Of a DNA stretch of 64,000 nt, positions 5,535 to 22,173 are shown one piece after another. The position numbers and the translations under genes were made by a program. The stretch spans positions 1,184,001 to 1,248,000 of the forward strand of contig CBDCDS010000003.1 in NCBI GenBank assembly GCA_965215365.1, written 5' to 3'. This stretch comes from Gammaproteobacteria bacterium (GTDB lineage: Bacteria; Pseudomonadota; Gammaproteobacteria; Eutrophobiales; Eutrophobiaceae). The number at the start of each line of letters is the position of its first letter. Within the stretch, counting starts at the first letter, position 1. The notes under the pieces are model-generated. The model worked only from the letters and a program-made list of their open reading frames with translations, made no database searches and had not been told where the DNA came from.

Positions 5535-6794
5535 ATGCCCGACTACCTCCACGCCCTGCCTGCCGGCTACCGCCTTGACGAATACGAACTGGTGCGGGTG
5601 CTGGGCAGTGGCGGGTTTGGCATTACCTACCTGGGCTATGACCACCACCTAGACAAAGCCGTCGCCATCAAGGAGTACCTGCCCAATGATCTGGCGGTGC
5701 GCGCTGACAATCACTCGGTGCTGCCCAAGTCCAGTCAGGACAAGGCCGATTACGAATGGGGCTTGGCACGCTTTCTCAATGAAGCGCAGACCTTAGCCCG
5801 CTTTGACCACCGGCACATTATCAAAGTCTATCGGTTCTTCCGCGCCCATGGCACCGGGTATATCGTCATGGAGTATGCCGAGGGCGAAACGCTATCGGAG
5901 GTGTTACAGCGTAAGGGGACTCTGACAGAGACCGAGTTACAAGCCCTGCTGTTTCCCATTCTGGACGGGTTGGCCGTGGTGCATGAGGCCGATGTGCTGC
6001 ACCGGGACATCAAGCCGGGGAATATTGTGATACGGGACGATGGCAGCCCGGTATTGATTGACTTCGGCTCGGCGCGTCAAGCGGTGGCGGGGAAGAGTCG
6101 CAGTGTGACGGCAATTGTGACGCCGGGGTATGCACCGATAGAGCAGTATTCAGCCAAGGGGCATCAGGGGGCCTGGACGGATATTTATGCCTTAGGGGCG
6201 GTGTGTTACCGGTGTCTGACCGGAGAGCCACCTGATGATGCAACCGAGCGCTTGCGCGATGACCCGTTAGTGCCTGCTGCTCAACGATGTAACGGCAAGG
6301 TCAGTACAGAACTACTGGAGGCCATTGACCGGGCGTTACGGGTGGAGGAGGGGGAGCGGCCGCAAAGCGTGGCGGCATGGCGGACTATGTTGGTCGGAGA
6401 TAGTGACAGCGGCCAACATATTACCGGATCTGTGCACACCCAATACAACACGACTATCGGCCCGCCGTTGAATAACAACGGCGAACACACCACCGGGCCT
6501 GTGCAGAATGCAACCTGGCAGGAGTTGCTGGACAGCTACCTGAATAACAACGGCGAACACACCACCGGGCCTGTGCAGAAGCCGGAAACACGTTCTGTCG
6601 AAGGTTCAGAGTCGGCCCATGTCGGGATGGGCGAGTTTCTGTGGGGGCTGTTTCGACCAGGTGGTCTAGGTCTGGTGATAATACTACTGTCATTGGGAGT
6701 AAGTATCTGGCAGGATCTTGGCTGGTACTCTTTGCTTGTAATGGCAGGTGTTTTTCTTTTTCTTCTTTTTCTTCGTTTTCTTCTTTTTGTGTAA
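5535..6794 (+). CDS. Hanks-type Ser/Thr protein kinase copy 1 with C-terminal membrane helices; last ~22 codons (to 9144) displaced by the IS66-type insertion
   Basis: GSGGFG, VAIKE, HRDIKPGN, DFG, TPGYAPIEQ, DIYALG; TAA stop comes from the IS end GTAA; frame resumes at 9070 as LFVFITVLMVIFKLIFRLILFLIE*. Confidence 0.92.
   Translation: MPDYLHALPAGYRLDEYELVRVLGSGGFGITYLGYDHHLDKAVAIKEYLPNDLAVRADNHSVLPKSSQDKADYEWGLARFLNEAQTLARFDHRHIIKVYRFFRAHGTGYIVMEYAEGETLSEVLQRKGTLTETELQALLFPILDGLAVVHEADVLHRDIKPGNIVIRDDGSPVLIDFGSARQAVAGKSRSVTAIVTPGYAPIEQYSAKGHQGAWTDIYALGAVCYRCLTGEPPDDATERLRDDPLVPAAQRCNGKVSTELLEAIDRALRVEEGERPQSVAAWRTMLVGDSDSGQHITGSVHTQYNTTIGPPLNNNGEHTTGPVQNATWQELLDSYLNNNGEHTTGPVQKPETRSVEGSESAHVGMGEFLWGLFRPGGLGLVIILLSLGVSIWQDLGWYSLLVMAGVFLFLLFLRFLLFV
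6469..6580 (+). repeat. 40-bp perfect direct repeat (6469-6508 and 6541-6580) in the kinase 1 linker
   Basis: TGAATAACAACGGCGAACACACCACCGGGCCTGTGCAGAA twice, 72 nt period, encoding NNNGEHTTGPVQ. Confidence 0.9.
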
Positions 6795-6829
6795 CTACTC
6801 GCCCCCTCCCTCTAATTCTACTGAATTTT

Positions 6830-6872
6830 TTGTCAAGGCGTCCTTGACAACATAGCGTCATGGCGTTATGTT
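6830..6872 (+). promoter_or_regulatory. Sigma70-type promoter of the IS-borne methyltransferase with overlapping inverted repeat
   Basis: TTGACA(6844)-17nt-TATGTT(6867), ATG 7 nt later; TTGTCAAGG-cgt-CCTTGACAA palindrome over the -35. Confidence 0.65.
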
Positions 6873-6879
6873 GGTCGTC

Positions 6880-19572: not shown

Positions 19573-19809
19573 GAAGCTTAATATTGATAGGTGTGTGGGG
19601 CTTAGTATTCTCATAAGGTGGTGCGATTTAGTTTATTAGGTTCTACGCACGCAATAAAAATGATGCGGTTGGGAGCAGAGATGATAACAGATGAAGAATC
19701 AAAAAATCAGCAAGGTGTGAGCTCTGAAGAATTTTTGTAGCCATCACGAAACTCTAATGCTACAAGCTACCTTTAATCACATCAGGAAGTTCAGCCACCG
19801 GAGATAAAG

Positions 19810-20034
19810 ATGAACTTAAAGCAAATAAAAGACGAGGTGCTCCACTTACCTGCAGGGGACAGAGCGGAGTTAGCCCAAAAACTTCTGCTAAGCCTTGATA
19901 CTCCGTCACAAGATGAAGTCGATGCCGGCTGGCTGACCGAATCACACAGGCGGGCACGTGAACTTGATGAAGGTATTGTTCAACCCATTCCGGCAGAAGA
20001 GGTGAGAAGAAAAGTACAAGCCTTGTTCAGATGA
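19810..20034 (+). CDS. Addiction-module antitoxin (orphan; partner reduced to stub MTYFLVTHA* at 20031-20060)
   Basis: LHLPAGDRAELAQKLLLSLD...AGWLTESHRRARELDEG..IPAEEV. Confidence 0.85.
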   Translation: MNLKQIKDEVLHLPAGDRAELAQKLLLSLDTPSQDEVDAGWLTESHRRARELDEGIVQPIPAEEVRRKVQALFR

Positions 20035-20052
20035 CCTATTTCTTGGTTACCC

Positions 20053-22173
20053 ATGCCTGACTACCTCCACGCCCTGCCTGCCGGCTACCGCCTTGACGAA
20101 TACGAACTGGTGCGGGTGCTGGGCAGTGGCGGGTTTGGCATTACCTACCTGGGCTACGACCATCACCTAGACAAAGCCGTCGCCATCAAGGAGTACCTGC
20201 CCAATGATCTGGCGGTGCGCGCTGACAATCACTCGGTGCTGCCCAAGTCCAGTCAGGACAAGGCCGATTACGAATGGGGCTTGGCGCGCTTTCTCAATGA
20301 AGCGCAGACCTTAGCCCGCTTTGACCACCGGCATATTATCAAAGTCTATCGGTTCTTCCGCGCCCATGGCACCGGGTATATCGTGATGGAGTATGCCGAG
20401 GGAGACACCTTATCAAAAGTGTTACAGCGTAAGGGGACTCTGACAGAGACCGAGTTACAAGCCCTGCTGTTTCCCATTCTGGACGGGTTGGCCGTGGTGC
20501 ATGAGGCCGATGTGCTGCACCGGGACATCAAGCCGGGGAATATTGTGATACGGGACGATGGCAGCCCGGTATTGATTGACTTCGGCTCGGCGCGTCAAGC
20601 GGTGGCGGGGAAGAGTCGCAGTGTGACGGCAATTGTGACGCCGGGGTATGCACCGATAGAGCAGTATTCAGCCAAGGGGCATCAGGGGGCCTGGACGGAT
20701 ATCTACGCCTTAGGGGCGGTGTGTTACCGGTGTTTGACCGGAGAGCTACCTGATGATGCAACCGAGCGCTTGCGCGATGACCCGTTAGTCCCTGCTGTCC
20801 AGCACTGCAAGGGCAAGGCAAGCACCGCCTTGCTCAACGCCATAGACCGGTCTCTTAAGGTAGATGAGGGGGAACGGCCGCAAAGCGTGGCGGCATGGCG
20901 GGAGATGCTATTGAATAAGACGGTAGCTTCAGCCTATCACCAGATAGAGGAAACGGCGAAACCGGCCACCCGGCCTCCTTCAATAAGCTCTCCAGAGGCT
21001 AAAGTTGGTTGGTTAAAACCCCTGCTGGTTGGGGTAGCAGTGTGGGTAATCTGTTTACTGTTAGTCTTTCTCGCGCAGGAGCAAGCTGCCATACAGCAGC
21101 AGGCTGTCAAACGAGAACGGATACGGCAGGAGCAGGCTGCCATACAGCAGGAGCAGGCTGTCAAACGAGAACAACGGATACGGCAGGAAAAATTATCTAA
21201 CGTTGAAATGTTCGAACAATATATCGTGGAGCAGGCTGTCAAACGAAAACAACGGATACTGCAGGAAAAATTATCTAACGTTGAAATGTTCGATCAATAT
21301 ATCGTGGAGCAGGCTGTCAATGAGCATTGGAACGCGTTTACGGCAGAGCTGAGGACTGGAGATCTGGTCGGAGCGGCTGCTTCCTTGTTTCAAATACGCC
21401 AGTTAAGCCCGAATGCGCCCGGTTTGTCCGACGGGGAGCGACTTTTAGCTGAGGCTCAGGTAGCTGCTCTGGCGAAGGCAATAGAGATGGTCTCCATCCC
21501 CGGCGGCACGTTCCGCATGGGGGATTTGAGTGGGGAGGGTTATAGCAACGAGCAACCCGTTCGCCGCGTCACGGTACCGGCCTTCAGGCTGGGAAAATAC
21601 GAAGTCACGTTTGCCCAATGGGACGCCTGTGTGGCGGATGGAGGCTGTAACGGTTACACCCCGCTTGTAGGCTGGGGCCGCGGCAACCGCCCGGTCGGCA
21701 ATGTCTCTTGGAACGACGCCCAATCCTTCATTGATTGGCTGAACGGCAAGACCGGCGGTAACTACCGCTTACCCACAGAGGCAGAGTGGGAGTATGCGGC
21801 CCGGGCCGGCACGACCACGAAGTACAGTTGGGGCGATGACATCGGCAGCAACCGGGCGAACTGTGATGATGATGTTTGCGGCGACTCCTATGAATACTCC
21901 GCCCCGGTAGGCAGTTTCCCGGCCAATCCTTGGGGCTTGCATGATATGCACGGTAATGTGTGGGAGTGGGTGCAAGATTGTTACAACGATAGTTACAAAG
22001 GTGCCCCGACAGACGGCAGCGCTTGGATGAGTGGTAATTGCGGCGAGCGCGTGCTTCGGGGTAGTTCCTGGTTCGGCGATGCGAGGTTCCTGCATTCCGC
22101 TTTCCGCTTCAAGGGTGCCGCCGCGAGCCAGTTCCACTTCGACATCGGCTTTCGTCTGGCCCAGGACAAGTAA
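20053..22173 (+). CDS. Ser/Thr kinase copy 3: kinase - TM - repeat stalk - FGE-sulfatase (C-type lectin-fold) domain
   Basis: All kinase motifs intact; [75 protein letters not shown]. Confidence 0.93.
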   Translation: MPDYLHALPAGYRLDEYELVRVLGSGGFGITYLGYDHHLDKAVAIKEYLPNDLAVRADNHSVLPKSSQDKADYEWGLARFLNEAQTLARFDHRHIIKVYRFFRAHGTGYIVMEYAEGDTLSKVLQRKGTLTETELQALLFPILDGLAVVHEADVLHRDIKPGNIVIRDDGSPVLIDFGSARQAVAGKSRSVTAIVTPGYAPIEQYSAKGHQGAWTDIYALGAVCYRCLTGELPDDATERLRDDPLVPAVQHCKGKASTALLNAIDRSLKVDEGERPQSVAAWREMLLNKTVASAYHQIEETAKPATRPPSISSPEAKVGWLKPLLVGVAVWVICLLLVFLAQEQAAIQQQAVKRERIRQEQAAIQQEQAVKREQRIRQEKLSNVEMFEQYIVEQAVKRKQRILQEKLSNVEMFDQYIVEQAVNEHWNAFTAELRTGDLVGAAASLFQIRQLSPNAPGLSDGERLLAEAQVAALAKAIEMVSIPGGTFRMGDLSGEGYSNEQPVRRVTVPAFRLGKYEVTFAQWDACVADGGCNGYTPLVGWGRGNRPVGNVSWNDAQSFIDWLNGKTGGNYRLPTEAEWEYAARAGTTTKYSWGDDIGSNRANCDDDVCGDSYEYSAPVGSFPANPWGLHDMHGNVWEWVQDCYNDSYKGAPTDGSAWMSGNCGERVLRGSSWFGDARFLHSAFRFKGAAASQFHFDIGFRLAQDK
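21076..21320 (+). repeat. Tandem coding repeats in the kinase 3 stalk
   Basis: QEQAAIQQ(E)QAVKRE(Q)RIR twice and QEKLSNVEMF(E/D)QYIVEQAV twice; four copies of AGGCTGTCAA. Confidence 0.85.

Follow-up and report, generated by a model that had tools for sequence, protein, structure and literature searches.

The window analysed here is a 64,000-nucleotide (nt) stretch of contig CBDCDS010000003.1 in assembly GCA_965215365.1, a gammaproteobacterium of the family Eutrophobiaceae. It contains three Hanks-type Ser/Thr kinase genes (copies 1, 2, and 3, starting at 5535, 16619, and 20053) whose catalytic cores are nearly identical and whose 3' parts differ. The genome (G000) is a 2.73-Mb assembly of 3 contigs, 97.6% complete, and the contig that holds the window measures 2.63 Mb. 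PF00069 scored 144.1, 131.5, and 143.0 bits on copies 1, 2, and 3, against a curated cut-off of 31.7. Hanks kinases are recognised by a glycine loop, the VAIK lysine, HRD, DFG, and an APE-like motif; the translations hold the complete set (GSGGFG, VAIK, HRDIKPGN, DFG, and APIE). All three PF00069 candidates in G000 were these copies, and a whole-genome search with the first 730 nt matched at the same three places alone, copy 2 as two pieces. The array is therefore the entire Hanks-kinase complement of the genome.

A repeat search returned a three-member family of 300 nt at 5534, 16618, and 20052 (identity 98-100%), and the copies remained 98-100% identical across the first 660-730 nt, with divergence beyond. 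A sequence-only reading of this DNA had described a constant kinase module with differing C-termini, in which copies 1 and 3 were separated by about 17 differences; the family is real, and exactly 17 differences were counted in nt 1-730 (13 synonymous and 4 nonsynonymous). The moderate divergence reported to follow, and then unrelated ends, were also recovered: copies 1 and 3 differ at 43 positions in nt 738-870, and no alignment extends past approximately nt 870. Homology within the window takes the form of an internal patch of ~720 nt with unique sequence on both sides. Seven of the 17 differences are packed into 16 nt (window 20403-20418; nt 351-366 of copy 3), a cluster that may be a short conversion patch whose donor has since gone.

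Relatives were searched with the 300-amino-acid (aa) kinase part as query (E <= 1e-20; 41 genomes including G000). Matches were found in 25 of the 41 genomes and in 13 of the 22 of the same genus, with 0 to 10 matches per genome, and clusters of 2-6 genes were present in G001, G003, G006, G010, G017, and G018. Pfam annotation of 29 relatives' kinases revealed no single fixed C-terminus, as the earlier reading required. FGE-sulfatase was the most frequent tail (14 kinases, 4 of them also with PG_binding_1), followed by ankyrin (7, 1 also with TPR) and DUF4328 (3); Sel1, PG_binding_1 alone, RDD, and TerB+DnaJ occurred once each, and one kinase had no tail domain. Within the single genome G003, cores with 93-96% nucleotide identity end in four kinds of tail: RDD, PG-binding, TerB+DnaJ, and FGE. 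Broken copies are common among the relatives as well, including a 239-aa fragment in G006, a TGA-bearing fragment in G018, and a gene with two TAG stop codons in G014. Their arrays stand beside the same partner genes as in the window, encoding trypsin-FHA, VWA-like, MotA/ExbB-like, FHA, and PP2C proteins. In a metagenome-assembled genome record, OY282352.1 (L035/L046), two adjacent kinase genes are 73-74% identical to the query and 94.8% identical to each other over 1227 nt, with ~99-nt repeats ahead of them; a similar array therefore exists outside the genus.

The cores cluster by genome. A DNA tree built from nt 1-660 of 13 close-group kinases placed the four kinases of G003 (support 100/100), the three of G018 (96/97), and two of G000 (98/97) each in a clade of their own. 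Forcing the five FGE-type genes together was rejected with a log-likelihood difference (delta lnL) of 194 and an approximately unbiased test value (p-AU) of 3.5e-70, and forcing the three DUF4328-type genes together gave p 0.012. A 28-row protein tree showed the same by-genome pattern, including the five kinases of G010. Over codons 1-220, synonymous divergence (dS) within genomes was 0.086 (G000), 0.12-0.25 (G003), 0.19-0.27 (G018), and 0.12-0.22 (G010), compared with a between-genome median of 0.94 (66 pairs, range 0.37-1.62). The identity of the cores is therefore not just a product of purifying selection. In codons 221-290, within-genome dS rose to 0.27-0.62 in G000, G003, and G018, and was 0.08-0.48 in G010.

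The identity profiles locate the edge of the uniform region. Sliding identity within G000, G003, and G018 was 85-100%, mostly above 90%, up to approximately nt 720; it fell to the between-genome level over nt 721-840 and then to noise. The best matches of the tails were the same-type tails of other genomes (FGE 57-75% identical in amino acids, DUF4328 41-49%). The affinity of copy 3 changes along its length, its 5' part being closer to G006_b than to G006_a (90.6% vs 86.8%) and its nt 660-870 closer to G006_a (80.4% vs 70.5%).

Exchange between copies has a direct example in copy 2, which combines copies 1 and 3 as a mosaic. Of the 15 informative sites up to nt 661, where a miniature inverted-repeat transposable element (MITE) splits the gene, 12 agree with copy 1; past the MITE up to nt 870, 45 of 45 agree with copy 3 (Fisher p 3e-10). 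Copy 2 carries zero private changes. The transmembrane (TM) helix attributed to both copies 2 and 3 is indeed shared, since with the MITE excised the two are 97.8% identical through the TM helix over 1014 nt. The MITE family gave 220 BLAST matches in G000, with 49 copies of at least 200 nt, and includes head-to-tail tandem pairs (for example, G000:C3:1092078-1092562 and G000:C1:2804-3288).

Among the window copies, copy 3 alone is intact, and the TM-stalk-FGE architecture proposed for it was recovered in full: a Pkinase domain (143 bits), one hydrophobic helix, a stalk rich in Q, E, and K, and an FGE-sulfatase domain (PF03781) scoring 204.4 bits across profile positions 4-254 of 255, with a cut-off of 23.3. 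The best NCBIfam match of this domain is PvdO-like, at 160 bits far under its cut-off of 500. The stalk contains a 78-nt tandem duplication at 21150-21305 with units 96% identical, so that the linker is being lengthened. The remnant at 15020 matches PF03781 with 92 bits at profile positions 155-241 only (same cut-off). It does hold a different FGE allele, as had been read: its FGE 3' part is 79-81% identical to that of copy 3 and lies nearest the first kinase-FGE gene of G006 (83.9% in nucleotides vs 81.2% to copy 3). The remnant also occupies the place of that G006 gene, after trypsin-FHA.

A standalone secreted FGE gene with a signal-peptide-like start and an apparent frameshift lies at G000:C3:1843008-1843795; its DNA is 80% identical to the FGE part of copy 3, and it may be a further relic or relative of the kinase tails. 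Diversification of the FGE domain by a diversity-generating retroelement (DGR) was considered and excluded by zero matches to the reverse transcriptase profile RVT_1 in the 97.6% complete G000 and by the absence of adenine bias. The two FGE copies differ at 52 of 253 nt, mostly by transitions at all four bases, with 9 and 12 mismatches at A depending on the copy.

By position, copy 1 is orthologous to a kinase-TM-FGE gene of G006 (611 aa), and both genes lie in the order PIN/MazE, kinase, MotA-like, FHA, PP2C. Alignment with this orthologue stops at aa 393 (~nt 6713), the end of the first TM helix, and the sequence beyond is T-rich DNA with a GC content of 30-45%; copy 1 has therefore lost its FGE domain. 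The 2-3 TM helices earlier assigned to copy 1 therefore stand for the first helix, which is homologous to the relative's TM, but not for the remainder, which lies past the breakpoint; the extra helices are probably read-through of junk. The copy 1 tail had also been considered as a separate sensor type, and the alignment instead identifies a truncated orthologue of the G006 kinase-FGE gene. In the 22 same-genus genomes the tail was absent except for a weak match (E 5e-4) to the linker and TM of that gene. The copy 1 linker contains 72-nt units at window 6400-6580, two of them identical, a tandem duplication that lengthens the linker.

The stop codon of copy 1 (TAA) is supplied by the inverted repeat of an insertion sequence (IS) of the IS66 family. 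Elements of this family typically have ends starting with GTAA and an 8-bp target duplication, and both were present here, together with a transpos_IS66 score of 249 bits (cut-off 180). G000 contains 13 full-length copies that are 99.7-100% identical, which therefore indicates recent expansion. The IS66-type accessory genes tnpA and tnpB were not recognised in the element (6791-9069). Its second open reading frame (ORF; 6868-7560, 230 aa) has a weak match of 18.6 bits, under the cut-off, to a D12 N6-adenine-methyltransferase.

The 5' edge of the homology was examined separately. ACCC-ATG had been described at three of the starts, and copies 2 and 3 and the remnant do have it, but copy 1 has TTC-ATG. 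The edge at the ATG without common upstream sequence is sharp, as described, but copies 1 and 2 have ~16 further upstream bases in common. The ACCC of the remnant belongs to a 14-nt IS66-type end that matched 3 times in the window (0.36 expected) and 48 times in the genome, 16 of them outside IS copies, and a gene start follows it only at the remnant. The paralogues of relatives have a common leader of 45-60 nt that is conserved between G003, G006, and G018 too; the sharp homology start at the ATG is a peculiarity of G000. A different small gene abuts each start (HicB-like at copy 1, an unnamed ORF at copy 2, an 'addiction module component' at copy 3), and a nucleotidyltransferase gene and the IS end lie upstream of the remnant. 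Upstream of copy 1, synteny with G006 stops at 5219. Insertions and deletions that replaced the leader in the mobile-element-rich G000 are the best explanation of the sharp edge; a gene would have stayed recognisable only where such an event left the ATG untouched. In two relatives, a 98-aa HTH_3 (HigA-like) gene lies directly 5' of the kinase leader (L019:7150-7446 in G018; L018:7890-8186 in G006), in G018 preceded by a HigB-like toxin gene, and a toxin-antitoxin pair may belong to the unit that is duplicated in the array.

We considered that gene conversion has probably kept the catalytic cores uniform in an old kinase array with multiple sensors, an array that is now decaying in G000, and we give this reading, drawn from sequence comparison, a probability of about 0.68. 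The array would be what remains of a cluster of membrane receptor kinases in a conserved accessory signalling locus with the order trypsin-FHA, VWA-like, kinase array, MotA/ExbB-like, FHA, PP2C. Arrays of the genus comprise 2-6 paralogues with one common catalytic core and unrelated C-terminal sensor or anchor domains. Repeated conversion between paralogues would keep the first ~720 nt, encoding the N-lobe and most of the C-lobe, near-identical within each genome, and would leave the end of the kinase domain, the tails, and the juxtamembrane stretch between them to evolve independently. Functionally, several inputs may converge on one phosphorylation output that FHA proteins would read and PP2C would reset. 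In the IS- and MITE-ridden 2.7-Mb genome, decay and rearrangement have left copy 1 without its FGE domain, the fourth gene as a scrap made of a start and an FGE end, and copy 3 alone intact; copy 2 is a recent mosaic, killed by the MITE and a 3' truncation. The anatomy of the copies, the mosaic, the by-genome grouping of the cores, and the synteny are observed, whereas conversion as the process and the convergence of inputs on one output are inferred.

The shape of the patch, with unique DNA on both flanks, is the reason that conversion of the core is read here and not exchange of tails. The earlier reading had proposed a signalling module re-armed by recombination with new sensor domains. Its recombination stands, since copy 2 is a mosaic and the cores cluster by genome, but the gain of new sensors does not hold within the window, where the C-terminal differences are decay states of kinase-TM-FGE genes produced by truncation. 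Conversion overwriting the core of resident genes would fit the sequences better than repeated re-arming with new tails. That re-arming model, in which a resident constant kinase would repeatedly gain C-terminal sensors by cassette recombination in the style of polymorphic toxins, is unlikely. Unrelated tails on near-identical cores in G003 and G018 would agree with it, the remnant at 15020 is readable as a stored FGE cassette, and the plentiful IS and MITE copies could mediate rearrangement. However, tail swapping predicts a common 5' end plus flank and not an internal patch, and the remnant retains the first 6 codons but lacks the kinase/tail junction on which cassette exchange would depend. 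Same-type tails are also conserved between species at roughly species-level divergence, the tail differences in the window are truncations, and standalone, promoterless tail cassettes were absent from the loci examined.

Independent recent duplication, in which the kinases of each genome would have expanded after speciation and would be similar because they are young, is quite unlikely. Young duplicates would be expected to cluster by genome and to have low within-genome dS, as observed, and the spread of kinase matches in the genus, from 0 to 10 in a genome, points to birth and death. Against this, whole-gene duplicates of recent origin should have common tails and flanks, whereas tails within a genome are unrelated or only 55-59% identical, and the same tail types reappear in different species. 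Recent duplication also leaves the sharp drop in identity at ~nt 720, inside the kinase domain of three genomes, without a counterpart, and the copy 2 mosaic reflects exchange between existing copies.

Mis-assembly of a single kinase locus as three, for which the 660-1000-nt repeats of a very repeat-rich genome and the likeness of copy 2 to a chimera of copies 1 and 3 joined at the MITE might speak, is very improbable, because contigs of public runs from two studies support three loci by joining each of the three unique upstream flanks to the kinase start and the copy 2 tail to unique downstream DNA with 0 mismatches, the shared kinase part has a depth 2.4-3.2 times that of single-copy sequence, 13 full IS copies are resolved in the assembly, and arrays of this kind also occur in relatives. 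In four runs from the two studies, contigs spanned 5000-5570 and 17799-20078 without a mismatch; across 9577-16644, three runs of one study each gave a single spanning contig, and the fourth run covered the interval in pieces. In run X15, of the second study, one contig links 17276 to 17520 without the MITE, and may represent either copy 3, with the repeat collapsed, or a form of copy 2 in that sample that lacks the MITE. Sponge-metagenome runs contained only 5-8% of the sequence words.

Several points weigh against the conversion reading. Conversion and recent duplication with tail replacement give similar sequence patterns, and homogenisation is weak or absent in some relatives, with within-genome dS of 0.48 (G006), 0.74 (G008), and 0.54-1.06 (G001). 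The three window copies have no shared promoter or leader. The groups used in the clade tests were named after a first tree had been viewed, and the relatives are non-independent samples. Finally, the public runs may include the source sample, and short-read contigs break in the repeat and cannot phase the copies.

The partner genes and the remaining features of the locus are collected in Table 1. In the window, as in G003, G006, and G018, the genes for kinase, PP2C, and FHA proteins lie next to one another. Across the 22 same-genus genomes, kinase and PP2C were both matched in 12 and both unmatched in 8; the 2 discordant genomes were G011 (83% complete), with the kinase alone, and G012, with a 44%-identical PP2C alone. 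The locus in G000 is rearranged, with the VWA-like gene and a trypsin-FHA scrap at 1802-2821, off the array. In relatives, the VWA-like gene stops 3 nt before the first kinase of the array (L017:4366-5271, L018:13609-14514), and in G003 two trypsin-FHA genes precede it.

Table 1 Features at and around the kinase array (window coordinates).
Position	Strand	Feature	Remark
1802-1890	+	3' remnant of second trypsin-FHA gene	81% identical to 13610-13698
1916-2821	+	VWA-like gene, 301 aa, Pfam VWA_2/VWA	Here apart from the array
4216-5502		Toxin-antitoxin genes 5' of copy 1: PIN/MazE pair 4216-4970 (minus); ORF 4964-5293; truncated HicB-like 5290-5502	ORF 4964-5293 with no Pfam match
5535-6794	+	Copy 1: kinase and first TM helix, joined by a linker that holds 72-nt repeats	Aligns with the G006 orthologue up to aa 393
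6791-9069	+	IS66-family element	16-nt perfect inverted repeats GTAACTACTCGCCCCC; 8-bp target duplication CTTTTTGT at 6783-6790 and 9070-9077
9684-10493	+	MotA/ExbB-like membrane protein	Conserved beside relatives' arrays
10506-11153	+	FHA-domain protein	
11153-12094	+	PP2C Ser/Thr phosphatase	Co-occurs with kinases genus-wide
12138-13727	+	Trypsin-like peptidase fused to FHA domain	
15006-15019	+	14-nt IS66-type terminal repeat (A variant)	Abuts remnant ATG
15020-15442	+	Remnant: first 6 kinase codons joined in frame to last third of FGE domain	
16619-17279	+	Copy 2, 5' part	Pseudogene
17280-17522		MITE, 243 nt	21-nt terminal inverted repeats; TA duplication
17523-17899	+	Copy 2, 3' part	Homology to copy 3 ends at 17875, directly past the TM helix
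17884-20034		Copy 2-copy 3 spacer: RelB/YafQ pair 18706-19238; 'addiction module component' antitoxin 19810-20034; two small minus-strand ORFs	Small ORFs with no Pfam match
20053-22173	+	Copy 3, 706 aa: kinase, one TM helix, stalk, periplasmic FGE-sulfatase	

Other repeats were observed in the window. The intergenic blocks 9206-9607, 28056-28218, and 33300-33546 are composites of short palindromic repeat families, with up to ~60 genomic matches per segment, and elsewhere in G000 some of these repeats form tandem arrays with a period of 72-174 nt (e.g., G000:C3:2323480-2324142). Two perfect 195-nt direct repeats (49944-50138 and 52032-52226) surround a 563-aa DDE_Tnp_1 transposase gene (50239-51930, minus), which adjoins a PQQ-dehydrogenase gene.

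Modules that combine a Ser/Thr kinase (STK) with PP2C and FHA proteins are known from the mycobacterial PknA-PknB-PstP-FhaA-FhaB operon and from the T6SS (type VI secretion system) set PpkA-PppA-Fha. As in these, the kinase, a PP2C, and FHA phosphothreonine readers are co-encoded at the present locus, with the likely logic that the kinase writes, FHA reads, and PP2C erases. Unlike them, the locus has several kinases with one core, and its partners include trypsin-FHA fusions and VWA-like and MotA/ExbB-like proteins; no T6SS or cell-division genes were adjacent among the window ORFs scanned. Searches of defence-system libraries gave matches limited to the generic kinase domain (PADLOC mad6, PD-T4-6), and membership in the anti-phage MADS system as MAD6 was rejected, with an NCBIfam MAD6 score of 130.8 bits against a cut-off of 460.

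Among the closest described architectures is the 'Proteo1' family of a bacterial STK atlas, whose members end in a TM helix only, FGE-sulfatase, or DUF4384, so that different tails on a single kinase family are already on record (10.1101/2025.01.12.632604). The kinases of the window resemble it in joining a kinase, one TM helix, and an extracytoplasmic FGE-sulfatase, an agreement at the level of architecture only. In contrast, the account of Proteo1, in the portion of the preprint that was available, includes neither clustered arrays, nor homogenisation of cores within genomes, nor DUF4328, Sel1, RDD, TerB+DnaJ, PG-binding, or ankyrin tails, and its text has 0 occurrences of 'gene conversion', 'paralog', or 'tandem' (10.1101/2025.01.12.632604).

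For the evolutionary process, mammalian TLR1 and TLR6 offer a close analogy as tandem receptor paralogues whose divergence is limited by gene conversion (PMC2077338). As far as the available part of that source describes them, however, these are two eukaryotic genes with related ligand-binding domains, whereas the kinase arrays are bacterial, hold up to 6 genes, and end in unrelated folds. Polymorphic toxin loci exchange C-terminal cassettes (PMC3482391) and share with the array a constant N-terminal part, variable C-terminal parts, and a repeat- and toxin-antitoxin-rich region. In the kinases, unlike the toxins as presented in the accessible section of that paper, the tails are binding or anchor domains and the constant part is an enzyme, and neither immunity genes nor orphan cassettes bearing the junction accompany them. 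The array was accordingly not classed as a polymorphic-toxin cassette array, since its tails are FGE, DUF4328, Sel1, RDD, TerB+DnaJ, PG_binding, and Ank and the remnant keeps the start region and not the junction.

FGE-sulfatase (FGS) domains have been described as variable modules (Kaur et al. 2020, PMC7159879). Like DGR-diversified proteins with an FGE or C-type-lectin fold, as excerpts of this work portray them, the locus has a C-terminal FGE binding module and two diverged FGE copies; unlike them, it lies in a genome with no RVT_1 match, and its FGE mismatches have no adenine bias. The MoxR-vWA ternary conflict systems of the same source were rejected as a match, because those seen in its available part have other architectures, the nearest being an actinobacterial theme of kinase, PP2C, and vWA (PMC7159879).

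Receptor STKs with FGE or other sensor ends are known already in bacteria, and so is gene conversion as a process. Our literature search returned no account of concerted evolution in bacterial Ser/Thr kinase arrays, which is not proof of absence. A genus-wide locus with up to six receptor kinases, unrelated sensor folds, and conversion that stops inside the kinase domain at ~nt 720 seems to be undescribed. The proteins belong to known families; their arrangement and the domain-limited homogenisation look like a variation on what is known.

A broader role, such as the innate receptor repertoire to which the earlier reading likened the family, is doubtful, although it can be outlined. Domain-limited conversion might keep one core uniform for a common FHA/PP2C/protease output, and a birth-and-death repertoire of tails (C-type-lectin-fold FGE, Sel1, ankyrin, TPR, and PG-binding) might survey envelope or invader cues, possibly in defence or self/non-self sensing, as a counterpart of clustered receptor-kinase and immune-receptor families. 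The nearby toxin-antitoxin modules and mobile elements and the patchy distribution in the genus would fit a role in defence or self/non-self recognition.

The window itself is more modest, as a whole Hanks-kinase complement mostly broken by IS, MITE, and deletions, and the intact arrays of the relatives are of more interest than the decaying array of G000. If the conversion reading is true, these arrays would allow a natural test of which region of a Hanks kinase has to match its partners and which is free to follow the sensor, and they would provide a bacterial parallel to the receptor clusters of plants and animals.

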